Assembly: GCA_963716175.1 (NCBI GenBank)
Contig: OY970296.1
Location: forward strand, 992,001-1,056,000
DNA length: 64,000 bases
Reading direction: 5' to 3'
From: an uncultured Armatimonadetes bacterium
Lineage (GTDB): Bacteria; Armatimonadota; Hebobacteria; Hebobacterales; Hebobacteraceae
Position numbers and translations under genes: made by a program. How positions within the stretch are numbered: position 1 is the first letter of the stretch; every line of letters starts with the position of its first letter. This document shows, piece by piece, positions 36,368 to 64,000 of this stretch. The notes beneath the pieces were generated by a model. That model had not been told where the DNA came from and made no database searches. It was given only the letters and a program-made list of their open reading frames with translations.

Positions 36368-38388
36368 CTATTCTGCCCCACGAGCGCGCAGGAGCCGGAC
36401 AAGCGCGTCCTTCTCCGCCCTGATCCTGATGGCCAGCTGAAGGGGCGTCTCCCCGCGGCTGTTGGGCGCGTCGATATCCGCGTGTCCATCCAGGAGCGCC
36501 TGGATGACTGACGGGATACCTCCTGATGCCACCGCCACGTGGAGCGGCGTGTCTCCGCCTCTGTCGTTGTGCGCGTTGACAACCGCGCCGTGCTCGGCGA
36601 GCACCCTCACGCACTGCGCGATGTTCTGCACCGCCTGCTCTGTGATGGACGGGAGGGAGGGGTCACCCCGGGCCTCCGCTTCTCCCGCGGCAGCCGCGGC
36701 CACGTGGAGAGGTGTGTCGCCCCACACGTTCCGCGCGTTGGCGTCCGCCCCGCGTTCCAAGAGTGTCTGAAGAACATCCGGAAGCCCGCGTGCTGCGAGG
36801 TGCACGGGTGTGTCCCCGTTGGCATCGGCTGTATCCACGTTAGCTCCCGCAGCCAGCAGGACTTCCACCGTGCTCGCGATACGCTTGTAGACGCCGGGGT
36901 AGTGTGGCTGCGCCCGCGCCGCCGCGAGAGCGCAGAGGGCGCAGTGGAGGGGGGTGCGTCCGGCCTTGTTGCGCGCGTTCACCTCCGCCCCCCGGCGCAG
37001 GAGGGCCTTGGCCGTGGCGCCGGGGACGCTGTCCGGCGGCCAGGCTGGGGACTGCCGCACATCGAGGTCGCCCAGGCCGATCGGCTGCGTCGACCGATTG
37101 CCCCCCACGGAGATATTGCGGTAGAGAGTAGGCACAGAGGCACCGTGGGGTATCCAGGGGGCTCCCTTCGCCACCATGTGAAGCGGCGTATCCCCGTCGA
37201 CAGTGGTATCGTGGACGCTGGCACCGTGATCCAAGAGGCGATCTGTAAGGTCACGGAGGTCATTCCGAGCGGCAAGGTGGAGCGGTGTCTCGTCGCGCCA
37301 GTTTCGGACCCGCGGGTCCGCCCCCTTCTCCAGCAGCACGAAGGCCCACTCGATGCACCCGAGGGCGACGGCGGTGTGAAGCAAGGTATCACCCTCGTTG
37401 TTGCGGACCTCCAGGTCAGGCCTAGCCTCGAGTAGTAGAGCGGCGGCCGCCAGCCCCGTCTTGCCACTTGCACCAAGATGGAGCGGCGTATTGCCGTCTC
37501 GGTCACGCGCCCGGGATCGGCCCCGTAGCGCAGCAACATCCGGGTCAGGTCGAGACAGAAGGACTTCCCTTTGCGGCTGGCAAGCGCCGTGTAGTGCAGC
37601 GGTGTCCAGCCCTGGCGGTCCCTCGCGTTCACATCAGCGCCCGAGTCCAGCAGTGTCGTGGCCGCCTCCAGCCAGGCCATGACAGCGGTGACGTGAAGGG
37701 GGGTGCGGCCCGCGTCGTCGCGTGCCTCCTTGTCCGCCCCCCGGTCTAGCAGTAGCTTCACCAGGTCCGGCTTCCCGGTGAGGTGTAGCAGGCTGGCGCC
37801 GGCCCAGTCCTTCGCACTGACGTCGGCGCCATGATCGAGGAGCATCCGCGCGACCTCGACGTGCCCGGGCGCCACGGCCAGCAACAGGGGACTGATGCCG
37901 TTGGCGCGGCCATTGACGTCGGCGCCGTGGTCCAGCAGCAGTGCCACCAGGTCGGCATGGCCATCCTCCGAGGCCTGGTCGAGGGCGGTGTAATCGCTGT
38001 GATGACTGCCGGCGCTGACCGGGTCGCGCGTGTGGTTCGTGGCGTCCACCAGGGCGCCCCTCTCCAGGAGCAGCTTCGCCACCGAAACGTGGGCGCCCAC
38101 GGCCGCGTAGTAGAGCGGCTTCGAGCCGAAGTCGCGGTCCTCTGCGTCCACAGCTGCCCCGGCGTCCAGAAGGAGCTGGATGACGTCCGTATGGCCTGCT
38201 TGCGCCGCCAGGTGCAAAGGCGTGCGACCTTCACGGTCACGGACGTCGGCTGGCACGCCTGCGGCCAGCGCGGCGCGCACTGCCTCCGCGTCGCCTTGCT
38301 TCGCCGCCTCCAGGAGATCCGCGCGGCAAGCGCCCGACGTGAACAGGAGCACTACCGAGAGGAACGCGAACATACGGATTGCGGCCAT
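36368..38388 (-). pseudogene. Secreted ankyrin-repeat protein with a -1 frameshift near 37512
   Basis: Signal-like MAAIRMFAFLSVVLLF; many G.TPLH.A repeats; ADP|ARDRDGNTPLH restored by a one-base shift joining the two ORFs. Confidence 0.8.
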
Positions 38389-38970
38389 GCCCCTACCCTC
38401 CTGTGGTGTGCGGGATGGTGTCACGCCATCATCCCGCGAGCGCCGGGCACTATTCCTGCCGTCCGCCTGCTGCGCCCGCTGGCCTCGGCGCTTTCTCCTC
38501 GTCCGCAATCTCCTTCAGGGCCTCCTGAAGGTCCTCGTGATCTTCGGTCAGTTTCGAGAGTATGTCCTTCGCCTCCTGGATCCCCGCGCAGACCCGCAAG
38601 GTGACGCTGCTGCAGAACCGCCACTACCGCATGGGCCTGGCGACGCAGGGCATGGGGTACTGGTGCCCACCGCAGGTGGGGCCGTAGCCCAGGGGGTTCC
38701 ACGAGATCCGTCTCCCGTGGTGCGCGTGCTCGCATGGGCGCGTGCGTTCCTGGACGCGGGCGGCGGGGGAGCGACCCGCTGCCGGAGGGTCTCCGCGCAT
38801 CCCCGCCGAACCTCTGTCATTGGCCAGAGGTCTCTCGCTGAGCAGTCTATCACTCCGGCAGGATGACCGACTCCGGTACGGAGGGTACTGACATGGTTGC
38901 CGCTCTGGGTGTTCCAACACCGAGAGCCCTGCTGTTCCCGGGGAGGAAGCGCCACTCCGTTCGCGGTCGC

Positions 38971-49869: not shown

Positions 49870-50814
49870 TCATCCTCCATCCGCAGTGCTCTCCCGGACT
49901 GGGGTCGTGCGCGCAGGTACAGGATGGCATGAGACGTGCCGGGCCGGGGCGCTCGAGGCCGCACGACTGTCTGGACAGCGTGGGGTGTGGGGGTGCATCT
50001 GGTTCATCGCGGAAGGGTGAAAGGCGATGGTGTCACCATTGGGCGCATGGAAGGCGGAGACCTCAACGTGATAGATCCGTTTGATGGTGGATGGGGTGAC
50101 CACCTCCGCAGGCGGGCCATCCAGCACGATGGCGCCATCGCAGAGCAGGGCCACGCGAGTGGATGCCAACAAGGTGTGCTCCGGGTGATGGGTTGCTTTG
50201 AGAATCGCATAACCGTGGGCGGCGAGGCCGCGCAGGAGGGCTAGGAATCTGAGCTGGTTGCCGTAGTCGAGGCCGCTGACCGGCTCATCCATGATGAGAA
50301 TGCGCGCGCCCTGGGCCAGCGCACGAGCGATCAGAGCGAGCTGGCGCTCGCCGCCAGAGATCTCCGTGTAGGGGCGATCCGCCAGATCCGCGATGCCCAG
50401 CCGCTCCAGCATCTCCATCGCGACATGATGGTCGCGACGGGTGGCGGATCGGACCAGGCCAGTGTACGGAAGACGTCCGAGCACCGCGATCTCCCGCACC
50501 GTATAGGGGAACGGCGTGACATGGGTCTGGGGCACATAGGCGAGGTACCGTGCAAGCTCCCGGCGCGGGTAATGCGCCAACGGTTTTCCGTTCAGGGCGA
50601 CGAGCCCGGACCTGGGTCTAGACAGGCCCAGCAGCAGACGCAGGAGCGTTGTCTTCCCGGACCCGTTTGCACCGAGAAGCGATACGACCTCTCCAGACCG
50701 GATCTTCAGGGTGACACCGTGGAGTACGCTACGACCTGCGTAGGCGAAGTGCACCTCCTGTGCCACCAGCTCCAGAGACTCAGGCATGACGGATTCGGAT
50801 ACGCTCATATCCAT
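49870..50814 (-). CDS. ABC transporter ATP-binding protein (FecE/BtuD type)
   Basis: GANGSGKT, ISGGERQ, IMDEP, H-loop THHP. Confidence 0.92.
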   Translation of the reverse strand: MDMSVSESVMPESLELVAQEVHFAYAGRSVLHGVTLKIRSGEVVSLLGANGSGKTTLLRLLLGLSRPRSGLVALNGKPLAHYPRRELARYLAYVPQTHVTPFPYTVREIAVLGRLPYTGLVRSATRRDHHVAMEMLERLGIADLADRPYTEISGGERQLALIARALAQGARILIMDEPVSGLDYGNQLRFLALLRGLAAHGYAILKATHHPEHTLLASTRVALLCDGAIVLDGPPAEVVTPSTIKRIYHVEVSAFHAPNGDTIAFHPSAMNQMHPHTPRCPDSRAASSAPARHVSCHPVPARTTPVRESTADGG

Positions 50815-51827
50815 CCCTTGCGTGCGCGGCGCACCACGAGCAGAAAGACGGGAACGCCGAAAAGGGCGGTGAGGATGCCGATGGGAATCTCCACGTTGTA
50901 TAAAGTCCGCGATACACTGTCGGTGGCGAGAAGGAAGACGGCCCCCAGACAGGCGCTGGTCGGGAGCAGCCGGGTGTTGCCGGGGCCGATCGCCAGCCGG
51001 GCGACATGGGGGATGATCAGCCCGACCCAGCCGACCATCCCGGCCAGCGAGACCGTTGCCGACGAAATCAAGGTGGCGACGGCGATCACGCTGTAGCGGA
51101 CGGTGGTCACGGGCACCCCCAGAGTGCGAGCCTCATCATCCCCCATGGAGAGGGCATCCAGCGCTCGGCCCAAGCCGGTGAGTGCGACGATTCCCAGCGC
51201 CATGGGAGCGACGACCCAGCCGATGACCTTGATATCCGCCAGAGACAGGCTCCCCATGAGCCAGTACTCGATCGCCGGAAGCTTGTTGCCAGGATCGGCC
51301 GCGAACTTGGCGATCGACAGGAGGGCGGTGAACAGGGTCCCGCTGATGACGCCACCCAACACCAGCATGATGATAGAGGCGCCTCCCGCCAACTGGGCAA
51401 TGCCCACAGCCACCGCCACGGCAACGACTCCCATGATAAAGGCTGTTACCTGAACCACCACCCAGTTCCCGGAAGCGAGGATCGCGATCGCCGCGCCGAA
51501 CGCGGCACCGGCCAAGACGCCCATCAGTTCCGGCGAGACCAGAGGATTGCGGAACACCGCCTGATAGGCGCCTCCCGATGTCGCCAATGCTGCCCCCACC
51601 AGCACCGCGCTCAGCACCCGCGGCAGACGAATCTGCACGATGACGTTGTAGAGCAAATCGTAGGCGTCTTTCGGCATCTGCTTGAGGCCGGTAGCGGCGA
51701 GAAGGAAGTCTGCAATATCCTTCACCCGCAGCGGATAGCGCCCAACCGACAGGGCGGCAAGAACTGCGACCACAAGGAGAGCCAGGAGGAAAGCGGTCCA
51801 GGGTACACCTCGTCTCACTTCAACCAC
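50805..51827 (-). CDS. FecCD/BtuC family ABC permease
   Basis: IRLPRVL…FRNPLVSP, WLMGSL, EARTLGV, GLIIPH. Confidence 0.92.
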   Translation of the reverse strand: MVEVRRGVPWTAFLLALLVVAVLAALSVGRYPLRVKDIADFLLAATGLKQMPKDAYDLLYNVIVQIRLPRVLSAVLVGAALATSGGAYQAVFRNPLVSPELMGVLAGAAFGAAIAILASGNWVVVQVTAFIMGVVAVAVAVGIAQLAGGASIIMLVLGGVISGTLFTALLSIAKFAADPGNKLPAIEYWLMGSLSLADIKVIGWVVAPMALGIVALTGLGRALDALSMGDDEARTLGVPVTTVRYSVIAVATLISSATVSLAGMVGWVGLIIPHVARLAIGPGNTRLLPTSACLGAVFLLATDSVSRTLYNVEIPIGILTALFGVPVFLLVVRRARKGWI

Positions 51828-52861
51828 TCGCCCAGGTCAGCATCGGTCACTTCGACACCCATGAAGAGGAGGCAGAACTGCCGAATCTCCTTGCGGATGT
51901 CGACGCGATATGCGTTGGGATAGAAGCGATAGGCCAGCCACTGCACGCCCAGTATGCGCATGACCGATGGAGGGCGGTCAATCCAGTTGAACGGCGTGCG
52001 GGGAACCGTGTAGATCCTGTGGGTGGCGACGGCTTTGACCTTCTGCCAGCGCGGGTCATGGTACGCGTTCGTCGCGAACTCCGGCTCCTGGGAGATGATC
52101 ACCTCCGGGTCGTAGAGAAGCACCTGTTCCAGGCTCAACTTCTCCATGCCCTGGTGGGTCTTGATGTCACCGTGATGGACGATGTTGCCTCCGGCCATGC
52201 GAATGGCATCCGTGTGGAGGGACCGGTCAGATTCAGTGGCCAGGCCATCGGCGGATTCGGCGTAGTAGACGCGCACGCGCTTCTCAGGCGGGATGGTCGC
52301 CACCGCCTTCTGCACCTCGGCAAACACGCGGCTGGCGTACTGGCTCAAGCGTGTGGCCCGGGACTCCCGGCCCAACAGTTCTCCGAGGAACTCGATGCCT
52401 GCCGGATAGGCGTCGATGGTGCGAATGTCAACAAAAACCAGTGGGAGATTGAGCTTGGCGAACCGCTCCTCGGTTCTGCTCAGGCCAGCTCCCTTTCCAC
52501 CCATCGCCAAGACGATGTCCGGCTTCAGCTTGAGCACCTCCTCCATGTTCACCTGTGCCCGCTCTCCGCCCGGAGGCTGCGTTGCCAGTTCGGGCAGCCC
52601 AGCGATCTCCCTTCGCAGGAATCGCCTGTCCTCGGCCCGGAACGGCAGGCAGCCCGGCTGAAGGCCGAGCGACAGGTCTGGAGCGACGACGTAGAGCAAC
52701 ACGTTGGTGTAGGGGTCGGAGGCATACACCTTGGTGATCTTATCAGGGATCGTCACCTTTCGGCCCACCATGTCGGTGATCTCCCGCCCCCATGCGGACG
52801 ACAAGGCAGTCACCGCCAGCAGACAACTCGAACACAGCCGGCGTACCAGTGTGCTCGTCAT
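51815..52861 (-). CDS. Iron-siderophore/cobalamin-type ABC substrate-binding protein
   Basis: Signal peptide; ITDMVGRKVTIP, NMEEVLKLKPD, SLEQVLLYDPE, PFNWIDRPPS. Confidence 0.9.
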   Translation of the reverse strand: MTSTLVRRLCSSCLLAVTALSSAWGREITDMVGRKVTIPDKITKVYASDPYTNVLLYVVAPDLSLGLQPGCLPFRAEDRRFLRREIAGLPELATQPPGGERAQVNMEEVLKLKPDIVLAMGGKGAGLSRTEERFAKLNLPLVFVDIRTIDAYPAGIEFLGELLGRESRATRLSQYASRVFAEVQKAVATIPPEKRVRVYYAESADGLATESDRSLHTDAIRMAGGNIVHHGDIKTHQGMEKLSLEQVLLYDPEVIISQEPEFATNAYHDPRWQKVKAVATHRIYTVPRTPFNWIDRPPSVMRILGVQWLAYRFYPNAYRVDIRKEIRQFCLLFMGVEVTDADLGEWLK

Positions 52862-53025
52862 GAAGCACCTCCATGCAGTATCAATCTCCGCCACCTTTGG
52901 CCTCCCTCAATATCCGCAAACCGGTGCGCTCGGCCAACTCGCAAGCGCTACAGATCCGGCGCCACACCATCCAGAACTGCCTTGCCCACCGTGCCGCCCG
53001 TTCAGCCTGAAAGACCCGGCGCCGC

Positions 53026-53208: not shown

Positions 53209-54111
53209 CTATGACTCCACAAGCCGGAACTTGACCTTGAAGGATATGGTCATCGCGACCCGCTCTCCATCCTTCAGTGCGGGTTCGAAGCGCAACCGTG
53301 CCGCGTGATCGAGAGCTGCCTGGTCCAGATCGCCGCGGCCTGACGACTTCGTCAGGCCAATGCAGGTGGGCCGCCCGTCGGCTGTGACCGTGATTCTGAG
53401 GGTGGTGGTTCCCTCTGCTCCCTGCTGTCGTGCAGCATCCGGATACGGCGGCTCGGTCCAGTTCAGAACGCGTGGTGGCGAGGACGGGCCCTTTGGCTTT
53501 GGGGGAGCAGGAGGCGCCGGCGCTGGCTTCGGCGCCAGCTCCGGCGTTGGCAACTCCGGAGCGACCTCCGTGCTCGTGAGACTGGTGCCAGACGCTCTGG
53601 GATCAGTGCTTCTTCCAGTGCCGCCGAGGCCGTACTCGCCAGGTGGGCCTGCCGACAGTGAATCGGCGCGGTCGAAGAGCGATGGCGTTGCCAGCACCGG
53701 CGCCGACACCTCGGATGCCTTGACAACGACCTCTCGCGGCAGCACTGGCAACTCGGCGGTCGTCTCGCCCTTCGGCCTCTGCGGCTTCACGAATGCCTCG
53801 TCAGGCAGGACGACGCGTCCCCTCTTCGGCGCGGCTGTGTGCGCCTTCGGCTTCGGCGCTTCGACGACGGCCGGCTTCGGCCGTGGCATGGGCTTCGTCG
53901 GTGGGGGCGGCAAAGTGGCGATCTCAAGGTCGAGTCTCTCTTGATCGCACAGCTTGGGGCAGACCACCTTCCCCAGATTGCAGAGGCAGTTGCCCCACCG
54001 ATCGGCCGCGTAGAGGATGCCTCCGTGCAGAACTAGGGAGGCGACAAGAGCGAGGCCGGCAATCCGGTCAATGCCGACGCGGACATGTGAGCGGGGGATG
54101 GCAATCGCCAT
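53209..54111 (-). CDS. tonB: Energy transducer TonB
   Basis: N-term TM with SLVLH motif, Pro-rich linker, C-term YPDAARQQGAEG…SSG…LDQAAL. Confidence 0.9.
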   Translation of the reverse strand: MAIAIPRSHVRVGIDRIAGLALVASLVLHGGILYAADRWGNCLCNLGKVVCPKLCDQERLDLEIATLPPPPTKPMPRPKPAVVEAPKPKAHTAAPKRGRVVLPDEAFVKPQRPKGETTAELPVLPREVVVKASEVSAPVLATPSLFDRADSLSAGPPGEYGLGGTGRSTDPRASGTSLTSTEVAPELPTPELAPKPAPAPPAPPKPKGPSSPPRVLNWTEPPYPDAARQQGAEGTTTLRITVTADGRPTCIGLTKSSGRGDLDQAALDHAARLRFEPALKDGERVAMTISFKVKFRLVES

Positions 54112-54123
54112 GGCGCGAGCCTC

Positions 54124-54564
54124 CTACTTCCTCGGGCCCTGCTTGGGTCTCTCGGTGGCAAGCGACACGTGCCGTAACCCGACCAGCCTCGCCGCGTCCA
54201 TGATCCAGATGACCTTGCCGTAGGCGGCCTGGCGGTCGCCGCGAATCACGACGGTCTTGTCGGGCGTGGCGATACGGCGCGCGGCATCCATCAGAGCCTG
54301 TGTGAGTCCGTCTTCTGACACCGCGGTATCGCCGACTCGCATCTCACCTGCGCTGTTGACGAGCACTGTGATCTCGTTCTGTTCCTTCGTCACGAGCTCG
54401 CTGCTCACAGCAGGCGGAAGCTCGACCTGCATCGCCGGCTCGGCGACGAAGAATGTCGCTGTAACCATGAAGATGATGAGCAGAACCAACATCACATCGG
54501 TGAGGGGTGTGATGTTTATCTCGGAGATGATGTCATTGTTCTCGCGTTGGAGAGACACTGCCAT
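54124..54564 (-). CDS. exbD: Biopolymer transport protein ExbD
   Basis: INITPLTDVMLVLLIIFMV; IRGD…YGKV. Confidence 0.92.
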   Translation of the reverse strand: MAVSLQRENNDIISEINITPLTDVMLVLLIIFMVTATFFVAEPAMQVELPPAVSSELVTKEQNEITVLVNSAGEMRVGDTAVSEDGLTQALMDAARRIATPDKTVVIRGDRQAAYGKVIWIMDAARLVGLRHVSLATERPKQGPRK

Positions 54565-54565
54565 G

Positions 54566-55165
54566 CTAGCTCTCCCGAACGGCAAGGGTTATCGCCTCGG
54601 CCGCCGCAAGCTCGGCCCGCTTGAGCAGACGGGACTGCCAGGTGATGAACACGTTGTAGATGATGACAGAGGTGATGGCGACGGCCAGACCGGCCGCGGT
54701 CGCGACCAGCGCCTCTGAGATGCCAGCCGCGACCACGGCCGGGCCGGCCGCGCCGACTTGGCCGATGTCCCGGAAGGCGCGGATGATCCCGAGCACTGTT
54801 CCGAAGAGGCCGATGAAGGGGCTGATGTTGCCAATGGTGCCGACGACGCTCAGGTGTGCGCTGAGACGAAGCCCTTCTGCTGAAAGCGCAGTGCGAACCC
54901 GCTCCTCGACCTCAGCCCGCGGCAGCTCCCGATGCCGGAGTACCGCGGCTATCGCCCGCACCCCAGGTGCCGGCGCGTCCGGCCACTTCGGGTGGGGGTT
55001 GCCTGCTTGAGCGAGGGCTGTTCGGGCGTGGGCGATGAGCTCCTGCGGATCCCGATCAGCGCGCCAGAAGTGCCAGAGGCGCTCCACCAGAATGGCAACG
55101 CTCAACAGAGAGCAGAGCGCCAACGGGTAGATGACAAGCCCGCCTTGCCCGAGCAACTGGAACAT
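54566..55165 (-). CDS. exbB: MotA/TolQ/ExbB proton channel protein
   Basis: Own AGGAGG RBS and MFQLLGQGG start; PFIGLFGTVLGII…GISEALVATAAGL. Confidence 0.9.
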   Translation of the reverse strand: MFQLLGQGGLVIYPLALCSLLSVAILVERLWHFWRADRDPQELIAHARTALAQAGNPHPKWPDAPAPGVRAIAAVLRHRELPRAEVEERVRTALSAEGLRLSAHLSVVGTIGNISPFIGLFGTVLGIIRAFRDIGQVGAAGPAVVAAGISEALVATAAGLAVAITSVIIYNVFITWQSRLLKRAELAAAEAITLAVRES

Positions 55166-55176
55166 GGGATCACCTC

Positions 55177-56620
55177 CTATCCTGACACTGGCTGGGCCGG
55201 GACTGAAGCCGAGCATCTGCGCGGCCGCATCGCGAGGTACACGGGTATGCCCGCGGCAAGAAATGCCGCGAGCCAGAGCATATCCCCAGGGTTGCGCAGC
55301 AAGTGGTTGACCATCAGCGCCATCGAGGACAGGCAGAAGATCGCCGGCACCCAGGGATAGCCCCAGGCTCGGTACGGTCGTGGCGCATCCGGTGCGCGAC
55401 GGCGGAGCACGAAGATCGCCGCGCCGGTGACGGCTGAGAGCAGCCAGATGACCAGGACAGTGAATGCCAGAATCCGACCGAGCGTCGCGCTCGAGAACGA
55501 TGATGCACGCGAGAGTCGCTTGGGCAGCGATGGCTGCCACCGGCACCCGTCTCTGTCGGTGGACTGAAGCCAACACGCGAGGGAAGAGCCCATCTTGTGC
55601 CATCGCGTAGTAGATGCGGGGGCCGACCATGACGGTGGCGTTGAGCGATCCCAGAATGCAGACCAGGATAGCCAGGGTCAGGATGCCGGACAGGCCGGGG
55701 CCGAGCAGCGAGTTCGCCACATCTCGCACCGGGACGGTCGACCCCGCCAGTCCAGCCACGGGGATCCCGTAGAGCAGCACGACGTTGAACATCAGGTATA
55801 ACACGATGACCAGCAGCGTCCCGAACACGAGCGAGCGCGGGACACTGCGCTGAGGATGGCGCACCTCCGCCGCCATATAGGTGGCTGCATCCCATCCGAG
55901 GTAGGCGAACGACACGCCGATGAGGGCAGCGCCGAACTCCGCGAGCCCGGCGCCGCCCACGACCGGCGTGCCACCACCGAGGTTGGCCCAGCTCCCCCGC
56001 CCGGCAAACAGTCCAAAGCCGGCAATGCCGACCAGGGCGGCGATCTTCAGCCCAGTGAGGAGGTTCTGGGCGCCGCTGCCCGTGCGCAGTCCGAGACCAT
56101 TGATCACCGAGAGGGCGATGATCAAGGCGATGGCGAGGATGTTCGCAGAGGCGACACTCCATCGGAAGATGGGTGTCTCGACAGTCCAGAGGGCATGCCC
56201 GGTCCACGCGGACGGCAGATAGGTCATGAGACCAAGTGCGACGAACGCGATGGACCCCGGGAAGGACGCGACGAACGACAGCCATCCATCGAAGAAGCCA
56301 ACGAGCGGACCATACGCCTCCCGGAGGTAGACGTAGTGGCCGCCGGCGCGGGGGATGGCGGCGCCCAGTTCAGCGTATGTCAAGGCGCCCGTGAGCGCCA
56401 TGATCCCTCCGACCAGCCAGGCGCCGAGGATAAGCGAAGGCGTCGGCAGATGCTTCGCGACCTCGCCGGTCGTCAGGAAGATGCCGCTGCCGATCATGCT
56501 GCCCACGACCAGCAGAACGCAGTCCGCGAGCCCCAGGCCTCGCATGAGCCCGGCCGGCTCCTGTGTGACGCTCGCCGCATCCTGCGCCACTTCAGCCGCC
56601 GCATCGCCGATTGTCGTCAT
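55177..56620 (-). pseudogene. APC family amino acid permease with a frameshift near 55493
   Basis: GSMIGSGIF, AELGAAIPRAGGHY, AYLGWD…AAEV; C-term TMs and RPYRAWGYP continue in the adjacent frame to a stop at 55177. Confidence 0.82.
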
Positions 56621-56652
56621 GGGTATCCCTGCTTCCCATTGCACACGGGCAT

Positions 56653-57444
56653 CTATCCGAACGCGAGGTAGAGTGCTCGGTAGTAAGCCTTGACCTCTTG
56701 GGCAGCCGAGGTTATCGACGCGAGATTGCCCGACCTCACCGCAGCCTCGAGTTGCTGCACCGCCTTGGTCTCGCCAGCGACTAACTCGCGGTGCTTCTCC
56801 CGCTCGCCCTCACCAACGGGGGTGAAACCAAAGTCGAGGACGCGCTGCCATGCGGTTCGGGCCTCGCGCACGAGGCCAGCGATGGTAGGCAGAGCGGCCT
56901 GAGTGGCCGACCTCGGGTCAGCGATGATGGGGTCGCAGGCCGCCTCCATCACGTTGTGATACTCGAACAGAGCATCGCCATAGTAGGCGATGCCGTTGCG
57001 CCGCCGCAGGTCCAGCAAGACCGATCTAACCGGGCCCAGCGCCCGGTGCGCCTGCATCACACGGCCCGAGGCCAGCAGCCGGCGGGCGATCTCAAGGTAG
57101 CCGGTCACCGTCGCTAGGTCCCGCTGCCAGTTCGCATCGGCCGCATAGACCGAGGGAGCAGTCTCGTAGAACCGGCCGAGCAGAGCCACCCATGCCGCCA
57201 GAGCGTCGTTGGTGGTAAGCAAGAGCGTGTCCGCGCGTGCGTCCGGCCGGTTCGTACCAACGAGGGCCTGCTTGTAAAGGGTGTTCCACTCCTGGAACTT
57301 TGCCTGGAACTGATCGGAAGATTGGCCCGCCCCGAGTTGCTCTGATGCCGCGATCGCCAAGGTACAGCAGGCAGCGATCAGAAGGAGGCTGGCAAACACA
57401 GCCCGAGCAGGGAGGGAAGCCGCGGCAGGCGCGCGACTCGTCAT
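56653..57444 (-). CDS. Secreted all-helical hypothetical protein
   Basis: Signal peptide; AHRALGPVR…RRRNG…YHNVME; ATGA overlap with the upstream gene. Confidence 0.65.
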   Translation of the reverse strand: MTSRAPAAASLPARAVFASLLLIAACCTLAIAASEQLGAGQSSDQFQAKFQEWNTLYKQALVGTNRPDARADTLLLTTNDALAAWVALLGRFYETAPSVYAADANWQRDLATVTGYLEIARRLLASGRVMQAHRALGPVRSVLLDLRRRNGIAYYGDALFEYHNVMEAACDPIIADPRSATQAALPTIAGLVREARTAWQRVLDFGFTPVGEGEREKHRELVAGETKAVQQLEAAVRSGNLASITSAAQEVKAYYRALYLAFG

Positions 57445-58826
57445 GATTGGCCGGCCTTCTTCCTGATCTCAATCCAGTTGCCACCCTCGCGGATGACCTT
57501 GTAGCCGCCAATGCCAGCCCTGGTCATGAGCGCGTCGTAGGAGAGCACCGGGAACGGAAATGCTGACTTGCTCGCTTGAGGAGAGGCCGGATCGACGCCG
57601 TACCACGCTTCCCGCCTGCCGCCGCGGATCTGGTTCTCCTCCTCCGTGGACGTGTAGCGCCCGAAGCCGCCGCCGATGAAGGCCACCCCGCCGGGCCTGA
57701 GCACGCGGTAGATCTCCTTGACCGCGAGGACCTGATCGCGCAGGAACGGGATTGTGCCCTTGGACATGACCAGGTCAATGGAGTTGTCTGCAAACGGCAG
57801 GCTGTGAGCATCAGCGCAGATGAACTGCGCCCGGTCGCTTAGCCCTGCCTCCTTGGCTCGCCGCCTGCCGGCCTCGACTGCTTCAGGCTCGATATCGAGG
57901 CCGATCACGGTGAGATCAGTCATTTGGACGAGCTTCACCGCCATCTGCCCGGAGCCGCATCCGATGTCCACGGCCGTGCCCTTCGTGATCCTGTAGTCGT
58001 CTATCAACTGCTGGCAGATGTTCTGGTAGGCTTTCATCATGCGGCTGCCGGCACCGGGATCGTCGGCGGGAGCATGGGTGCCGTCGTCCAGCATCAGGCC
58101 GTGAGACAGGTAGACCCGCCGGGCGCGCGCGTCGCCGCTCAGGAAGTCGACAAGCGCCCCCGCCTCCTTGGGTGATCGCGCCTTCGGCGTCACGAAAGCC
58201 GGGATCAGCGCGGCCAGCTCGGAACCATAGCGGCTGACGGGAAGCCGGATGACGACCGGGCTGAGCGGGTTCCCGGAGACGGTGTAGTCCCATCCAAGAA
58301 CGGCGTCCACCTTGCCTCTCGCCAGCAGGTCCATCATGTCGTCGGCGTCAACGGTGGTGGCGACGAAGCTGCTCTCCTTTCCCTTCAGCAGCTTCTCGCC
58401 CCGCCATGCGCAGAACTCGATCTTCCCCCATCTCACGCCGGGCTTGCCCAGGTCCTCGATTCCTCGGATGTTCCGCGGGTTGCCTGGAGGGACAATCACC
58501 GCCATCCGCCCGCAGAACAGGGGCTTCCGGCTCGCTGGCACGACGTATCCCTTCTGCTCCCAGATGTCGGCCGAGCGATTGCAGGAGGGGACTAGCACGT
58601 CCATGTCACCCTTCGCCGGAAACTGCATGAGCTGCGGGTGAGGGAACCGGTGGACGATCACCTGGTTGCCTGTGTCAGCCACCCAGATAGCGGCCGCTTC
58701 GCGTACGACTGGCCCATACTCGTCGTAGACGCCCACATCGATACGGGCCGCGCCTGCCGCGGCGGCAAACAGAGCGCTCGCCAGGAGCGCAAATCCGAGT
58801 ATCGTCAAGAGTCGCAGGCGCATCAC
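57441..58826 (-). CDS. Signal peptide + ModA-like substrate-binding domain + class I SAM methyltransferase fusion (copy 2)
   Basis: Sec-type signal; VIVPPGNPRNIRGIEDLGKPGV (ModA-like); AVDIGCGSG…ADAHSLPFADNSIDL…VLRPGG. Confidence 0.85.
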   Translation of the reverse strand: MMRLRLLTILGFALLASALFAAAAGAARIDVGVYDEYGPVVREAAAIWVADTGNQVIVHRFPHPQLMQFPAKGDMDVLVPSCNRSADIWEQKGYVVPASRKPLFCGRMAVIVPPGNPRNIRGIEDLGKPGVRWGKIEFCAWRGEKLLKGKESSFVATTVDADDMMDLLARGKVDAVLGWDYTVSGNPLSPVVIRLPVSRYGSELAALIPAFVTPKARSPKEAGALVDFLSGDARARRVYLSHGLMLDDGTHAPADDPGAGSRMMKAYQNICQQLIDDYRITKGTAVDIGCGSGQMAVKLVQMTDLTVIGLDIEPEAVEAGRRRAKEAGLSDRAQFICADAHSLPFADNSIDLVMSKGTIPFLRDQVLAVKEIYRVLRPGGVAFIGGGFGRYTSTEEENQIRGGRREAWYGVDPASPQASKSAFPFPVLSYDALMTRAGIGGYKVIREGGNWIEIRKKAGQS

Positions 58827-60266
58827 TTATCCTGCCTTTGCCGGAGCTGCTGGCTTGCGGAACTCGAGCCAGCTTCCACCTTCAGTGATGTGCCGGTAGT
58901 CGGAGATGCCGGCGCGGGCCATGAGCGCGGGCACGTTGTCCAGGGGGAAGGGGAAGTTGAAGTCCCTAGGAGTGGGCTGGCGCGTCTTCTCCGCGTCTTC
59001 TTTGGGGAGGAAGCGACCGGAGCCGCCGCCGAGGAAGGCCCAGCCGCCGGGCTTGAGCACGCGCATGATCTCGCGCAGCGCCATCGCCTGATCGCGCCAG
59101 AAGAAGATGGAGCCGCGACTCATGACCACGTCGAAGCTGTTATCAGGGAAGGGCAGCGCATGAACATCCGCCGCCACCCAGTGCATGCGTGAATCAAGTC
59201 CGCACTCCTTGCCGTACTGAACAGCGAAGTCAATCGCCTCCGGCTCTATGTCGAGGCCCGTCACCTCCAGCCCGGAGGCCTTTGCCACCTCGACCGTCAG
59301 CTGACCGGGCCCGCAGCCCAGATCGAGGCAGTTGGCCGCTCCTGCAGCGTAGTCCGCCGCGACCGTCTTGGCCACCGAAATATAGGAGGGCATCATCCTC
59401 TTTCCCGCGCCCTCCTTGTAGTCGGCTACCCTTCCGCCGTCGCTATCGAGGATGGCGCGAGACAACGTCAGGCCCCTAGCCTCGCGCGACTTGACGCAGA
59501 ACTGGAGGAGCGCCTGAGCATCAGCAAGACGTTTGGTTCCTCGCACCGCGTAGCCATGTCCGGCCTGCGCTGCATCATCGCCAGCGACCGAGCGGGGCAG
59601 ACGGATTGTGACCAGCTCCGGTCGCAGGTGACCGGCGAGATCCATCCCGACTACGACGTCCAGCTCGCCGTGCTGTAGGCGGTCGAGAAGCGCGTCCATC
59701 GAGTCGCCGACCACCGCTCCCTTGGCCTTGAGCTTCTCCCCCAGCGGACCGGAGACGTGATCGGTGCAGAGCCCTACGCGCAGCCCAGGCCGGTCCAGAT
59801 CCTGCGCCGACATGATCTGGAGGGGATCGGCCGGAGCCAGGAACATCGCCAAGCGGCCGTAGTACAGGATGGTGTCCGATTCGGGGATGACCAGGCCCGC
59901 GTCCGTAGCCTTCTTGGTCGAACCGGGACACGCTCCCAGCACGACGTCGACGCGCCCGGCCTTCATCGCCTCCTCCAGCGGAGGGTATCCCTCAAAGAGG
60001 GTGACGCTGGCGGCTACGCCGGAGCTGGCGATCCATGCCCCCACCAGCTCCTCCCCCAGGTGACGCGGTGAAAAGGGTATCACCGCGACCCTGAGGGGCT
60101 CGACGCTCCGCCCGTGCTCGTCGCTCTGGGCTGCCGGTGCCGCTGGCGCGCCGGCCCGGCCGCCCGCACCGCCGGGCGGTCCTCCGGGGCCGCCACCAAA
60201 CGCGGCGCCTGCCACCACGCCAATCAGGGCGAGACAGATGACCAACCGCCAGGAGTGCGTCCTCAT
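58827..60266 (-). CDS. Signal peptide + ModA-like substrate-binding domain + class I SAM methyltransferase fusion (copy 1)
   Basis: Sec-type signal; DPLQIMSAQDLDRPGLRVGLC; CLDLGCGPG…ADVHALPFPDNSFDVVMSRGSIFFW. Confidence 0.85.
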   Translation of the reverse strand: MRTHSWRLVICLALIGVVAGAAFGGGPGGPPGGAGGRAGAPAAPAAQSDEHGRSVEPLRVAVIPFSPRHLGEELVGAWIASSGVAASVTLFEGYPPLEEAMKAGRVDVVLGACPGSTKKATDAGLVIPESDTILYYGRLAMFLAPADPLQIMSAQDLDRPGLRVGLCTDHVSGPLGEKLKAKGAVVGDSMDALLDRLQHGELDVVVGMDLAGHLRPELVTIRLPRSVAGDDAAQAGHGYAVRGTKRLADAQALLQFCVKSREARGLTLSRAILDSDGGRVADYKEGAGKRMMPSYISVAKTVAADYAAGAANCLDLGCGPGQLTVEVAKASGLEVTGLDIEPEAIDFAVQYGKECGLDSRMHWVAADVHALPFPDNSFDVVMSRGSIFFWRDQAMALREIMRVLKPGGWAFLGGGSGRFLPKEDAEKTRQPTPRDFNFPFPLDNVPALMARAGISDYRHITEGGSWLEFRKPAAPAKAG

Positions 60267-60303
60267 GCGATTCGCTCCTTTCACCTAAGTCGTCTACCCA
60301 GGC

Positions 60304-62370
60304 TCATTTCATACTGGCCGTGCGGCTGAAACCCACAGTGTAGTTGCGGCCTGGTCGCGGGAAGCCAGGTTGGCTCTCGTAAGCGGCATCGAACATGTTG
60401 TTCAGCGCCGCGTTCAGGCTCCACCCTACGCCCAGCTCCCGAGAGGCGGTCAGGTTGGCGTAGCTGTAACCGTCGAGCGGATAGGCCAGGGCGTAGTAGC
60501 CGGAACGCGCAATCCGGTCGCCCACATTGGTGTAGCTCAGCGCTAGGCGGGTGCGCCTATCTGGCGCCCACCGAAGGCCGAGGCTGGACTGCCCTTTGGG
60601 CGGGACCGCCAACTGGAGAGGCTGACCCTCGGCCATGGGAATGCGCGCGACCTTCTGATGCATGTAGGTGTAGTTGGCGAAGTAGGTCAGGGAGCGCACC
60701 GAGGAGATCGCGCCCTTGAGCTCCGCTTCGAGCCCCGACTGCGTGAAGTCAGCCTGCACCTGGACATAGTCACTTGACTTGCTGGGATCGCCGCCGGTCT
60801 TCAGGTAGCTGACGAAGTAGTTGCTGATCGCAGACTGGAACCAGCCCATGCGCCCCATCAGGTTAGGGCTGAAATGCTTCTCGATCCCCACGTCAACGTT
60901 GCCGCTGGTCTCGTCCTTCAGGTTGGGATTGCTCTGCAAGGCGCTCTGGGTGGGGTAGACGACGCCGGTGCCGTAATGGGCATAGAGGATCGCCTGCTGT
61001 GACAGGTAGTGCTCGAGCCCAAGAGCATAGGTGGAAGCGTGCTTGCGGCCCATTGGTACCTCGTAGCGACCCCCATAGAAGAACCGCGTGTGCGGGGAGA
61101 TGGACCATTCGTCCTGAGCGAAATAGCCGGTCAGCCGGTCGTCGGCGGACGAGGGCGCATACATGCGGAGAGCCCCACCGGCCAGCAAGTTGAGCTGCTG
61201 CGAGTAGCCATTCAGCCGGTAGGTTTCCATGCCCACCCGCAGGTAGTGGTCCTGCGCCGCCTGCAGCCGGAGCATCAGGTCCCCGCCAATCGTATCGTCA
61301 ACCTCGCTATAGAAGGGATTCTGGCCCACCTTGGGAGCTATGGGCCCGCCGAACGTGAAGTTGTGGTAGAAGCGGTTGCGGTACCAGAGCTCAAGGTCCA
61401 GCCCCGAATTGGCCTTCGCAAAGGGCCGAGTGTAGGCGAGGGTTGCCAGCCGCTCCCGGTAAGGCGCTATGCCCCAGTAGGCCGGCCCGGTCTTGGCGAA
61501 ATCCTGCCAGGCCTTGTCCCAGACATCGAAGTTGCGCCGGCCGTCAATGTTCAGCAGCGAGAACTTGACGGTGGCGCCACCCTTCAGGTCCTGGTCTGAC
61601 TTGAGGAACACCCGCTGCAGGCGGTGCCCTCCGAACTCCAGGTTGCTGTTCGAGGTGTCGTAGTCGGCGGCCAGGAACAGGCCCTTGTCGGCCGGCCCCT
61701 GCCCCACGGAGATCCCGCCTCGGATGTAGTCGAAGCTGCCGGCGCTAAGGGAGGAGGTGTACTCACCCGTTCCCTTACCTTTTCCGCTCTTGGTCACGAT
61801 GTTGATGACGCCCCCGCTGAGCGCCTGGGGGCCGTAGATCAGGCTCGACGAGCTCCTGATCACATCCACTCGCTCCACCGCCGACAGCGGCAGCGAGTAG
61901 AGGGTTCGCGCGGAGAACCCGCCGACACTGATCAGAGCGCCGTCCAAGAGGAAGGTGGCGGCGGAGGAGCCCCTGATGTTCACGAAGGTCTCGTATCTCC
62001 GCCCCTGGTGGGTAACCGTGACGCCGGGAAGGAACTCAAGCGCATCGGACAGGTTGGTCTCACCGGTAGCCTCCAGTTCCGCGCTGTTGATCGAGGTGAT
62101 CACCTCACCGGTGGTCGGCGCGAGCGATGGCACCGGCTGCTCCCCCACTTTCTTGCCAACGACCTCGACTTCGATCTCCGGCGTCTCCTCCGCTGTCTTG
62201 GCGGCTGCCGCTGACTCCGGCGGCGCGGGTGCCGCAGGGGCCTCTGCATCCACCTGCTTCTGCTCGGCTGCCACAGCCGAACCCGTGTCTTCAGCGCCAA
62301 GCAACGCTGTGCCACAGATCAGGACAAGCACCAAGGCCAGACAAGCCCCCCAACACAGCTGTCGTCGCAT
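60304..62370 (-). CDS. TonB-dependent outer membrane receptor
   Basis: Signal peptide; EVEVVG TonB-box-like; plug LPGV…IRG…VERVDVIR…GGVINIVTK; C-term NNMFD…PGRNY; GGAGG RBS. Confidence 0.92.
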   Translation of the reverse strand: MRRQLCWGACLALVLVLICGTALLGAEDTGSAVAAEQKQVDAEAPAAPAPPESAAAAKTAEETPEIEVEVVGKKVGEQPVPSLAPTTGEVITSINSAELEATGETNLSDALEFLPGVTVTHQGRRYETFVNIRGSSAATFLLDGALISVGGFSARTLYSLPLSAVERVDVIRSSSSLIYGPQALSGGVINIVTKSGKGKGTGEYTSSLSAGSFDYIRGGISVGQGPADKGLFLAADYDTSNSNLEFGGHRLQRVFLKSDQDLKGGATVKFSLLNIDGRRNFDVWDKAWQDFAKTGPAYWGIAPYRERLATLAYTRPFAKANSGLDLELWYRNRFYHNFTFGGPIAPKVGQNPFYSEVDDTIGGDLMLRLQAAQDHYLRVGMETYRLNGYSQQLNLLAGGALRMYAPSSADDRLTGYFAQDEWSISPHTRFFYGGRYEVPMGRKHASTYALGLEHYLSQQAILYAHYGTGVVYPTQSALQSNPNLKDETSGNVDVGIEKHFSPNLMGRMGWFQSAISNYFVSYLKTGGDPSKSSDYVQVQADFTQSGLEAELKGAISSVRSLTYFANYTYMHQKVARIPMAEGQPLQLAVPPKGQSSLGLRWAPDRRTRLALSYTNVGDRIARSGYYALAYPLDGYSYANLTASRELGVGWSLNAALNNMFDAAYESQPGFPRPGRNYTVGFSRTASMK

Positions 62371-62757
62371 AGAATCATCCTCCGTATGACGTTTCCGGTT
62401 GGGTCAACTGTAACTGCTGGCGATTTCGCTCGCGACAACACGCCGAGAAATAACTGTGAAATGCCTTGGACCCGACTGTCCCGGGTCCGATGAGGTCGGA
62501 CGGCTGCGAGGTCGCGTCAGTTCAGAACACGCGGCCACCCAGGCGAGAGGTACAGGGAAGCCTCTGATTGCGCCTTCCAGCGTCAGCGGAGGGGGGCGTG
62601 GCAGCGAACGGCAGCAGGCAGGAACGGCACCCGAGTCACACTGCGAACCGTGAACAAACGGTGTCAGTCGGGGTTGCGGTGCATGCATGCGCGACGATGC
62701 CGCGCGGCAAGAGGGGCTTCGTGGCGAATGCGCGTGACAGAAAGGTCCGTCAGGTGA

Positions 62758-64000
62758 TTACACGCCAGATGAGGTAATGACGGGTCTTGTAAAGCGCCGG
62801 CACGGTATGTGGGGAGAAGATGAGTGGCCGCCCGAAGCCACCATCCTCAGTGCCTGCAGCAGGTAGCGGATCTCATCCTCGGTGTTGAACCCCGACACGC
62901 CGAAGCGAACGGTCCCTTCAGGCCTGCTGCCGATCGCCTTGTGGATCAGTGGCGCGGCGTGCAGGCCCGCCGAGCAGCGGATGCCGAAACGGAGCTCGAG
63001 TTCGTCCTTGACCTCCTCGGCTCTGCGGCCTGTCATGCGGATTGACATGACGGGGACACGCTGTGCACGCTTGGCGTCCCCGACGATCCACATGCCGCGA
63101 GTCCGTCGTAGCCCGCGGCGCAGGAGCTGTGCCAGCCGCTGACCTTCTCGCCGGCAAGCTTCTCCTTCCCTCTCGTGCCACTGCAAGGCCGCGCACAGCC
63201 CGGCGAAGGCCATCGTGTCGGGCGGGCCGGTTTCGAGGCCTGCAGGCAGCTCTGGAGGCGTATGTGTGATGAATCTGGTCCTGCTGCGCGCAGTGCTCGT
63301 GAAGACCGGCGAGAGCACTAGCCGGGGATCGACGTAAAGGCCACCGGTGCCACTAGGTCCTCGGAGCCTCTTGTGGCCGGTGAGCGCAACCATGTCTGCG
63401 CCGAGCTCATCCGGGCGGACCGGGGCTTCGCCTACTGTTTGAGAAGCGTCGAGGAGCGTGTGCGCGCCTACGGACCTTGCCATCGCGAACAGCGAGGCGA
63501 CATCGAACACGCGGCCGGTGACGTTTGAGGCGTGGGTGACCGCCACCAGACTGGTTCCCCTCTGCAGAGCGGTGGCGAATGACTCGCGGTCCAGCTCTCC
63601 CGTGGCGTCCAGCCCGATGACGGTCAGGTGTATCCGCCTGCAATGCCGCAGGTGGAGTAGCGGCCTCAAGACCGATTCGTGCTCGGCGCAAGTGGTGATG
63701 ACGCGAGCGCCCCTGTACCGTGCGAGGCCGAACAAGGCGAGGTTCAAGGCGTGAGTCGCGCCCGCGGTCAGGAAGATCCGTTCGGGACACGGCACCCCCA
63801 GCAGACGGGCCAGCATCTCCCGGCACTCCCACATGGGGCCGGCGTAGGATGGTTCCTCATCGTCGCGCAGGATGGGTGGGGTCGTCAGTGCCGAAGCCAC
63901 TGCCTCCACAACTCCAGGGGCCTTCGGCCAGGAAGTCGCTGCCTCATCGAGGTAAATGAGGTCGGGCGATACTCGTTGCTTCCTTTGTGCATTCTCGAGC
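62758..64000 (-). CDS. Aminotransferase class V / cysteine desulfurase-like protein (5' end runs to the window edge)
   Basis: Frame open to window end: IYLDEAATSWPK, EHES, HASNVTG, DASQT, TGHK (PLP Lys); catalytic HCAP is replaced by HAAP. Confidence 0.85.
   Translation of the reverse strand, partial: LENAQRKQRVSPDLIYLDEAATSWPKAPGVVEAVASALTTPPILRDDEEPSYAGPMWECREMLARLLGVPCPERIFLTAGATHALNLALFGLARYRGARVITTCAEHESVLRPLLHLRHCRRIHLTVIGLDATGELDRESFATALQRGTSLVAVTHASNVTGRVFDVASLFAMARSVGAHTLLDASQTVGEAPVRPDELGADMVALTGHKRLRGPSGTGGLYVDPRLVLSPVFTSTARSRTRFITHTPPELPAGLETGPPDTMAFAGLCAALQWHEREGEACRREGQRLAQLLRRGLRRTRGMWIVGDAKRAQRVPVMSIRMTGRRAEEVKDELELRFGIRCSAGLHAAPLIHKAIGSRPEGTVRFGVSGFNTEDEIRYLLQALRMVASGGHSSSPHIPCRRFTRPVITSSGV

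Follow-up and report, generated by a model that had tools for sequence, protein, structure and literature searches.

Two tandem fusion proteins follow a TonB-dependent receptor

In a 64,000-nucleotide stretch of contig OY970296.1 (assembly GCA_963716175.1, from an uncultured Armatimonadetes bacterium), which was analyzed as a whole and is called the window hereafter, two adjacent genes lie directly behind that of a TonB-dependent receptor (TBDR). They encode paralogous proteins, fusions A and B, in which a leader and a solute-binding protein (SBP) domain precede a class I methyltransferase (MT) domain of the type using S-adenosylmethionine (SAM). We tentatively propose, with slightly less than even confidence, that A and B could be periplasmic capture-and-methylate accessory enzymes of TonB-dependent import, acting on the cargo brought in by the receptor. 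The three genes are as follows.

60304..62370, minus strand: TBDR, which opens the unit (Pfam Plug, E 6.6e-20)
58827..60284, minus strand: fusion A, 485 residues as listed; leader, Gly/Pro-rich linker, SBP_bac_11, class I SAM-MT
57441..58826, minus strand: fusion B, 461 residues; leader (MRLRLL... AAGA/AR), SBP_bac_11, class I SAM-MT

The TBDR stop is separated from the start of fusion A by 19-37 nt, and A from B by 0-3 nt. The probable start of A is the ATG at 60266, preceded by AAGGAG, and that of B the ATG at 58823, with a Shine-Dalgarno-like sequence; GGAGGA stands ahead of the ATG of the receptor gene. An earlier note on this DNA had described two tandem paralogous fusions behind a TBDR, and the open reading frames (ORFs) are indeed found where it placed them, with both domains above the Pfam cut-offs. 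The span of 56653..62370 that it gave holds the receptor and the two fusions, but it also includes a third, unrelated gene, an ORF of 263 residues.

Domains, fold and catalytic residues

In the Pfam scan, SBP_bac_11 (cut-off 25 bits) and Methyltransf_11 (cut-off 21.2 bits) were both found in the two proteins, with E 1e-8 (35.6 bits) and 7e-26 (91.1 bits) for A, and E 4.4e-19 (69.6 bits) and 1.3e-25 (90.3 bits) for B. A and B share 37% identity over 420 residues (E 2e-81). The motifs quoted in the earlier note are all present (DLGCGPG, SRGSIFFW and GACPGS in A; DIGCGSG and PSCNRS in B), the second MT motif being SRGSIFFW in A and SKGTIPFL in B.

With 28 family sequences as input, AlphaFold2 modelled B at a pLDDT of 91.5 and a pTM of 0.87, the latter implying a defined two-domain arrangement. 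Foldseek matched its C-terminal half to PDB entry 3dlc (E 3.9e-16, TM 0.79 on the target) and also to MitM, RebM and TleD, all consistent with a Rossmann-like fold, and in a profile search the same half (residues 249-458) aligned with 3dlc residues 10-213, tail included, at E 2.8e-48. The N-terminal half was matched by Foldseek to PEB3, ModA-type proteins and AcfC (TM 0.76-0.80 on the ModA-type targets), so that the SBP fold expected by the earlier note is borne out by model and fold search. In fold, the binding domain is about as close to ModA-type proteins as to PEB3. By profile, PEB3 (E 1.1e-13) is closer than ModA (1.2e-9), AcfC being matched at 2.9e-8, and phmmer with the binding domain by itself matched PEB3 and AcfC only. 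The label "ModA-like" is therefore valid at the level of the Pfam family only, the sequence being nearer to PEB3/AcfC. Neither modB nor modC, companions that served as one mark of ModA membership, occurs in the window unit.

The hallmarks of class I MTs are a Gly-rich motif I and two acidic residues, one ending strand 2 and the other following strand 3. D287, G289, G291, D311 and D339 are invariant across the 28 family members; together with the Rossmann-like fold, they support the description of the domain as a complete class I MT. We also compared three groups, 23 SBP-MT proteins, 40 members of the exported clade and 10 cytoplasmic relatives (73 sequences in all). Motif I and D311 are 90-100% conserved in each of them, and Y267, S355-R356-G357, F361, D364, E371 and R374-V-L-x-P-G-G are each at least 80% conserved in every group, fusion B itself having a K at position 356. 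The exported members thus keep the residues of the cytoplasmic ones, which argues for the same chemistry and not for decay into a binding module.

A and B reach no NCBIfam cut-off among the best 25 families for each, and our literature searches, partial in their coverage, returned no paper on MT-receptor or SBP-MT fusions, in line with the view that this is not a well-annotated family. Assignment to the ArsM, TehB, UbiE, CpaM or DVU_1556 families was rejected, with best NCBIfam scores of 58-65 bits against cut-offs of 155-575 and TehB in Pfam at 16.6 against 20.4. Selenocysteine was rejected as well, the flags for one internal TGA in five relatives being terminal stop codons. A predicted complex of mature A and B scored 0.01 and weighs neither way. 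One contig of run X1 lacks 12 bases of the Gly/Pro/Ala-rich linker of A (60178-60192), which looks like an in-frame length variant of a related strain.

Predicted export of the fusions

In the family alignment, nearly all leaders show 1-5 Arg/Lys, an uncharged hydrophobic run and small residues. Under a home-made rule, which asks for a positive charge followed by an uncharged run of at least 12 residues and for a mean hydropathy of 2.0 or higher in a stretch of 10, 36 of the 43 fusion proteins are signal-peptide-like vs none of the 10 leaderless cytoplasmic relatives. Six of the seven misses start within or past the hydrophobic run, and are thus likely to be truncated gene calls; the seventh has a less hydrophobic leader. 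Export by Tat was rejected: twin arginines are not conserved (the leaders begin MRLRLL, MRSRIV or MRTKLQ) and RR occurs in few members. The Sec-like leader without twin-Arg reported in the earlier note is therefore a conserved feature. A stand-alone paralogue in the bacterium's own genome (L083, 266 residues as listed) has no leader, and is thus uninformative about the periplasm.

An independent line of evidence comes from relatives in which the MT is part of a receptor. Two proteins of 873 and 894 residues (L014, 9821-12442; L024, 2269-4953) are composed of a leader, an MT domain and a TBDR Plug, the second one also carrying the TBDR beta-barrel after the Plug. The MT part of the L024 protein was searched against 5.8 billion proteins, keeping those of 491-1565 residues at E<=1e-10. 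Among the 94 matches, 77 (a table count) have a TBDR Plug C-terminal to the MT, seven are SBP_bac_11-MT proteins of about 490-515 residues ("type C"), two are MT-GH43 fusions and one is a fusion to an AXE1-type esterase. Those of the sequences that were inspected all start with leaders or lipoprotein boxes. Receptors with a class I MT domain before the plug form a large and undescribed family of about 77 clusters (P0109-P0196), from Latescibacterota, Acidobacteriota and others. Since an extension N-terminal to the plug of a TBDR is periplasmic by established topology, the position of the MT in these proteins indicates that the clade works outside the cytoplasm. Altogether, the leader rule and the receptor-fused relatives support the prediction that A and B are Sec-exported periplasmic proteins.

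Two observations on these relatives may be added. An Nramp gene stands immediately upstream of the MT-receptor gene in L024, and the partners in the GH43 and AXE1-type esterase fusions (P0177, P0178, P0192) do not fit a reading in terms of metal uptake.

Phylogeny and distribution

A quick IQ-TREE phylogeny of 81 MT domains, with SH-aLRT support only and five generic MTs as outgroup, separates a clade resembling 3dlc (MMP1179) from the generic MTs (support 98*). Within it, types A (99*) and B (98*) are sister clades (90) and join fusions from Thermodesulfobacteriota and Acidobacteriota in a group of 22 rows (92). A separate group of 35 rows (100*) holds exported forms only: the receptor fusions, type C, the fusions to GH43 and to the esterase, and those stand-alone proteins that bear a leader. 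Stand-alone proteins without one branch between the two groups, in a tree whose deep nodes are weak and in which three rows sit on long branches. The SBP-MT proteins thus occupy two separate parts of the tree. Type C and B are nevertheless collinear across both domains (30% over 361 residues) and, given the weak deep nodes, one old fusion and repeated fusion are indistinguishable; separate origins for the two SBP-MT groups, which we considered, are therefore unsupported.

A search with the full profile brought 144 new representatives at 50% identity, 108 of them complete stand-alone proteins (20 with signal-like leaders, 77 leaderless and 11 with other leaders). In three loci of Armatimonadota/WS1 (L013, L020, L025), a MutL-family gene (PF13941) is found about 5 kb upstream of the leader-bearing MT and, in two of the three (L020 and L025), a DUF6754 gene is also present, a conserved context of another kind.

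The SBP-MT fusion is rare, being confined to one family among the genomes sampled from its phylum and sporadic in other phyla. In a protein search with B that scored only the 8000 candidates with most shared words, 108 matches were obtained at E<=0.001, about 42 of which have both domains (count from the Pfam column). Nearly all are metagenomic, and they carry automatic source names only, such as "methyltransferase domain-containing protein" or "SAM-dependent methyltransferase/AcfC". Among 1.84 billion representatives at 50% identity, 222 match at E<=1e-30 and nine of the best 150 span both halves in a single stretch. Within the phylum, a match to the fusion at E<=1e-40 was obtained in 7 of the 301 genomes sampled, the bacterium's own included, all in a single family (f1), that is, in six of its 14 other genomes plus the own one. 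Full-length matches outside the phylum come from titled records of metagenome-assembled genomes of Thermodesulfobacteriota, Acidobacteriota and Pirellulaceae.

A conserved unit with an exchanger and the TonB system

The window holds a full TonB-dependent uptake locus, with a plug-bearing receptor, ExbB, ExbD and TonB. Downstream of the fusions, the genes are the following.

56653..57444, minus strand: ORF of 263 residues; hydrophobic leader, possible lipobox IAAC, without Pfam or NCBIfam match
55177..56644, minus strand: LAT/SLC7-like amino-acid exchanger of the APC superfamily (AA_permease_2, E 3.5e-52), split at 55492
54566..55165, minus strand: ExbB (MotA_ExbB, E 2.9e-30); ATG at 55165 after AGGAGG
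54124..54585, minus strand: ExbD (E 1.6e-29)
53209..54111, minus strand: TonB (TonB_C, E 8.5e-20)

This order was compared with that in related genomes of the same family.

Window: desulfurase-like gene, TBDR, A, B, 263-residue ORF, LAT-like permease, ExbB, ExbD, TonB, system of the ATP-binding cassette (ABC) type
G045: gene order as in the window, minus B and the 263-residue ORF
G220: TBDR, A, B, permease
G212: TBDR, A, B, permease, ExbB, ExbD, TonB, NifB-like radical SAM
G115: TBDR, B, permease, ExbB, ExbD, TonB, NifB-like radical SAM
G058: TBDR, B, permease
G272: B, ExbB, ExbD, TonB; the contig begins at the fusion

A titled record, L001, has the arrangement of G115 and was excluded from the locus counts. 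The receptor is directly upstream of the fusion or fusions in all six informative loci of the family, which agrees with the TBDR synteny anticipated in the earlier note, as the seven carriers among 301 genomes give the count of this architecture. The LAT-like permease is directly downstream in six of seven informative loci, the window included, and ExbB-ExbD-TonB follow in five loci of the window's family. Identity to the window TBDR is 68% for the receptor of G045 and 48-51% for those of G220 and G212, and fusion A is 89% identical in G045. A occurs without B in G045, and B without A in G115 and G058, each between receptor and permease. An A-B heterodimer, which the duplication had suggested to the author of the earlier note, is thus unlikely to be obligate.

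The permease of the window is read in one frame to residue 375 and in the other frame beyond, and aligns in two frames with the intact G212 gene (66% identity). All the contigs that cover position 55492, two from X1 and one from X2, have one base fewer there; X1 coverage at this position is 9.29 of 9.29 in depth, and the X2 contig is otherwise identical. As the extra base is not shared by these contigs, it is most likely an assembly error or a private variant. It makes the N-terminal part of the permease run into the ExbB frame, thus creating a false ORF of 692 residues (54566-56644). The G212 permease matches xCT, b0,+AT, y+LAT1, LAT1 and the bacterial structure 6f2g at E 1e-43 to 1e-48. The SLC7 light chains are obligatory amino-acid exchangers.

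Metal context of the relatives

The leaderless relatives of the MT domain belong to transport or metal-cofactor clusters in six of the seven loci examined, the Sphaerochaetaceae locus being the one with no such genes nearby. The clusters are ordered as follows.

Dehalococcoidales: Peripla_BP_2-FecCD-ABC-FmdE-DUF364-MT-YqeC
Ignavibacteria and two Chlorobi records: TBDR-SBP_bac_6-MT-CobW-ABC
Pelotomaculum: XdhC-MoeA-MT-TrmO_N-FmdE-DUF364-ModA
Syntrophomonadaceae: ABC-MT-CobW-ABC-SBP_bac_6-MT

Among 80 loci analyzed by tblastn, metal markers lie within 6 kb in 13 of 28 loci of the clade vs 1 of 52 loci of other MTs, a count that is only indicative, and partly circular since the marker queries were taken in part from the same loci. 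With this reserve, the statement of the earlier note that stand-alone MTs of this subtype often neighbour metal-uptake TBDR or ABC genes holds. As for the fusions of other phyla, the one from Acidobacteriota (L004) is directly behind a molybdopterin oxidoreductase set and a modABC with its own ModA, and the one from Thermodesulfobacteriota adjoins Peripla_BP_2, DUF4213, FecCD and rhodanese genes. The DUF364 structure paper (PMC2954201) links the neighbourhoods of that family to the transport of tungstate, molybdate, iron and vanadium. Altogether, these neighbourhoods and the resemblance of the window's class III binding protein to HI_1472 suggest that the cargo is a metal, an oxyanion or a metal chelate, without naming which.

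Possible functions of the fusions

We propose the following sequence of events for the capture-and-methylate step. A and B would be exported by Sec; their PEB3/ModA-like domain would capture a small, probably anionic or metal-bearing cargo released by the receptor; the attached MT domain would then methylate this cargo with SAM, trapping or converting it before it crosses the inner membrane; and the LAT-like exchanger would be the inner-membrane partner, which could import the cargo or its product, or swap SAM for S-adenosylhomocysteine (SAH). A step of this kind had been raised in the earlier note, and what stands of it is the predicted export, the SBP fold and the intact SAM motifs, and not the methyl transfer or the substrate. 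Gene structure and order, the domain folds, the conservation of leaders and of SAM and pocket residues, and the fusion of MTs of this clade to receptors are observations; periplasmic catalysis, the nature of the cargo and the part of the exchanger are inferences. The confident model of B and the presence of SBP-MT proteins in two parts of the MT tree speak for a coupling of the two domains.

Several points weigh against this proposal. We know of no periplasmic SAM pool, and full-text literature searches, within their partial coverage, returned no description of a periplasmic SAM-dependent MT; moreover, export by Sec excludes that the proteins carry bound SAM over the membrane. The LAT-like permease is restricted to the operons of the window's family and absent beside the other exported MT forms examined, which excludes it as a general source of SAM. 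The evidence names no substrate for A or B, whose binding domain is without clear ModA-type identity, and the circularity of the marker count weakens the metal context. Finally, the public runs listed for the window DNA include no RNA dataset.

One could assume, on the other hand, that the MT domain has no catalytic role and serves in the periplasm to bind or sense SAM, SAH or some related adenosyl compound, and that the operon scavenges such compounds via the receptor and the LAT-like permease, or senses them. We regard this as improbable, if worth serious attention. Supporting this idea, the SAM-binding residues are strictly retained though we know of no periplasmic SAM source, and the conserved inner-membrane partner belongs to an amino-acid exchanger family; SAM and SAH are themselves alpha-amino acids, and the yeast SAM permease Sam3 is a member of the APC superfamily, which likewise counts for binding only. 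An MT at the periplasmic end of a receptor could also serve as a ligand sink. However, residues outside the SAM site (Y267, SRG, F361, D364) are as conserved as in the cytoplasmic relatives, and the latter are found in metal clusters and not in methionine-salvage clusters. The genome also has its own metK (545 bits, cut-off 309). The bacterium is thus not a SAM auxotroph, and auxotrophy is ruled out as a motive for SAM import. An exported nucleosidase for methylthioadenosine and SAH (TIGR01704) was not found in this genome, which is 90.85% complete, a result that is uninformative.

A periplasmic detoxification, in which toxic sulfide, thiols or metalloids (As, Se, Te) would be methylated independently of receptor import, appears rather more doubtful. 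The weak NCBIfam matches to arsenite methyltransferases (58-60 bits, cut-offs 263-575) and the TehB match in Pfam would fit it, as would the occurrence of the DNA in wetland and freshwater-sediment metagenomes and the rhodanese gene of the Thermodesulfobacteriota locus. Yet every such family cut-off is missed, periplasmic SAM would still be required, and both the receptor fusions and the tight order of receptor, fusion, permease, ExbBD and TonB would be left unexplained.

There is still less to be said for a protein MT with targets in the envelope, such as the receptor or another outer-membrane protein, a role that we consider very unlikely. The tethering of the domain to receptors, GH43 and an AXE1-type esterase would suit such a role, but apart from 3dlc the closest relatives of known structure methylate small molecules, the cytoplasmic relatives lie in small-molecule and metal clusters, and a ligand-binding SBP domain would be an odd partner. 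Least probable of all, to a degree that leaves it hardly credible, is that the hydrophobic N-termini stem from misplaced gene starts or anchor cytoplasmic domains to the membrane: the leader calls do come from a home-made hydrophobicity rule and the localisation is predicted, but nearly all members have positive charges before the hydrophobic run and small residues after it, starts supported by Shine-Dalgarno sequences lie just upstream of the leaders, Pfam names SBP_bac_11 an extracellular solute-binding family, and the receptor-fused relatives have to cross the inner membrane.

Returning to capture and methylation, a further hypothesis, which we hold to be unlikely on present grounds, is that of a periplasmic SAM economy, of which the fusions would be the first indication. 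The whole MT clade, be it soluble, joined to a binding protein or attached to the periplasmic end of receptors, would methylate cargo leaving the receptor while, in the window operon, the LAT-like exchanger would swap cytoplasmic SAM for periplasmic SAH. By analogy with group translocation, this would be a vectorial methylation, a chemical trapping at the outer membrane. In a bolder version, the cargo would be a form of Mo/W from sulfidic sediments or a metal chelate, whose metal would be freed by methylation.

Comparison with known systems

The C-terminal half of the fusions resembles, tail included, MMP1179 from Methanococcus maripaludis (PDB 3dlc), a putative SAM-MT. The latter is a stand-alone protein of 219 residues whose archaeal source has no periplasm, whereas A and B have a leader and a binding domain ahead of the MT. 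For the N-terminal half, the best sequence matches are PEB3 from Campylobacter jejuni and AcfC from Vibrio cholerae, and the motif with the conserved Cys of the fusions lies within a collinear part of the alignment. Like A and B, these two proteins are orphans, with no adjoining ABC permease of the SBP_bac_11 type; unlike them, they have no enzyme domain, and according to the entry titles their crystals hold phospho-carboxylates or D-aspartate. ModA, of the ModABC system, shares the Pfam family and the fold with the fusions, and its similarity is weaker than that of PEB3. The resemblance to MolA of the MolBC system concerns another protein of the window, its class III binding protein, which resembles HI_1472 (E 5e-19). 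To our knowledge, methylation plays no part in Mo/W uptake by ModABC or MolABC.

A parallel can be drawn with periplasmic enzymes that act on receptor-imported cargo, such as the enterobactin esterases PfeE, IroE and Cee and the exported CbiK-like chelatases tied to heme receptors. The logic is shared, that of a periplasmic enzyme beside or fused to a TBDR, but these enzymes need no cytoplasmic cosubstrate, whereas a SAM-dependent step would. In FecA-type transducers, a signalling domain stands before the plug, where the MT of the sister clade sits; the FecA extension is an STN signalling domain, while here it is an enzyme fold and, in the window, it is borne by separate soluble proteins. Periplasmic cargo enzymes being already known, what is new is a SAM-dependent fold in the periplasm, repeatedly fused to receptors and binding proteins.

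Methylation with SAM is regarded as a process of the cytoplasm, yet the clade described here is conserved, exported and intact in its SAM and pocket residues. It follows that these bacteria either have SAM in their periplasm or put the fold to an undescribed use there, and either answer alters our view of TonB-dependent import in uncultured Armatimonadota-like bacteria, Acidobacteriota, Latescibacterota and Planctomycetota. The fusions would also offer a first functional handle on the MMP1179-like MTs found in the metal-uptake and Mo/W-cofactor clusters of anaerobes and, being small and soluble, they are suited to direct binding and activity tests.

Other features of the window

The remaining genes around the unit are the following.

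62758..63999, minus strand: class V aminotransferase, cysteine-desulfurase-like (Aminotran_5, E 1.7e-58), upstream neighbour; continues past the end of the window
51815..52894, minus strand: class III periplasmic binding protein of a type II ABC importer (Peripla_BP_2, E 1.2e-20)
50805..51827, minus strand: FecCD-type ABC permease (FecCD, E 6.4e-78)
49870..50814, minus strand: ABC ATPase (ABC_tran, E 2.6e-31)

The desulfurase-like gene has a counterpart at the same place in G045 (52% identity) and is a possible member of the unit. The ABC system is downstream of tonB, from which the Peripla_BP_2 gene is separated by a gap of 314 nt, and among the related loci only G045 has the class III binding protein at this position. 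The nearest solved chains of this protein are 4pag (3e-65), 4ovk and HI_1472, which we take to be MolA, a molybdate/tungstate binder. The receptor itself reaches no NCBIfam cut-off among the best 25 of 28 families, the best being a BtuB-type model (101 bits, cut-off 600), and its nearest solved chains, matched in the plug region alone (E about 1e-12), are those of BtuB.

The 263-residue ORF shares 4 nt with the end of B. It gave a tblastn match in none of ten related loci, could not be aligned with the ORFs at the equivalent place in these loci, and falls in unnamed clusters only of the protein Atlas; by its sequence it appears to be specific to the window locus and unrelated to A and B. In the whole window, the Rfam scan gave no family at the gathering score, and before the receptor (62300-62800) the one riboswitch match was a sub-threshold AdoCbl-II (17 bits, E 0.47) on the wrong strand. 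Promoter and terminator signals were in no excess over shuffled expectation. The window DNA was found in wetland and freshwater-sediment metagenome runs.

The NifB-like radical SAM gene closes the operon in G212 (L098:4233-5159) and G115 (L099:7226-7888), and scores 250 bits against TIGR01290 (cut-off 344). In the bacterium's own genome, its homologue is distant from the unit (G000:C1:366169-369976, that is, L106:16169-19976) and adjoins a NifH-family gene and two genes of the nitrogenase-component-1 type; these NifB/NifH-like genes are a predicted nitrogenase-like cluster. Elsewhere in the window, positions 36979-38508 encode a bacterial ORF of 509 residues rich in ankyrin repeats (Ank_2, E 1.8e-47).

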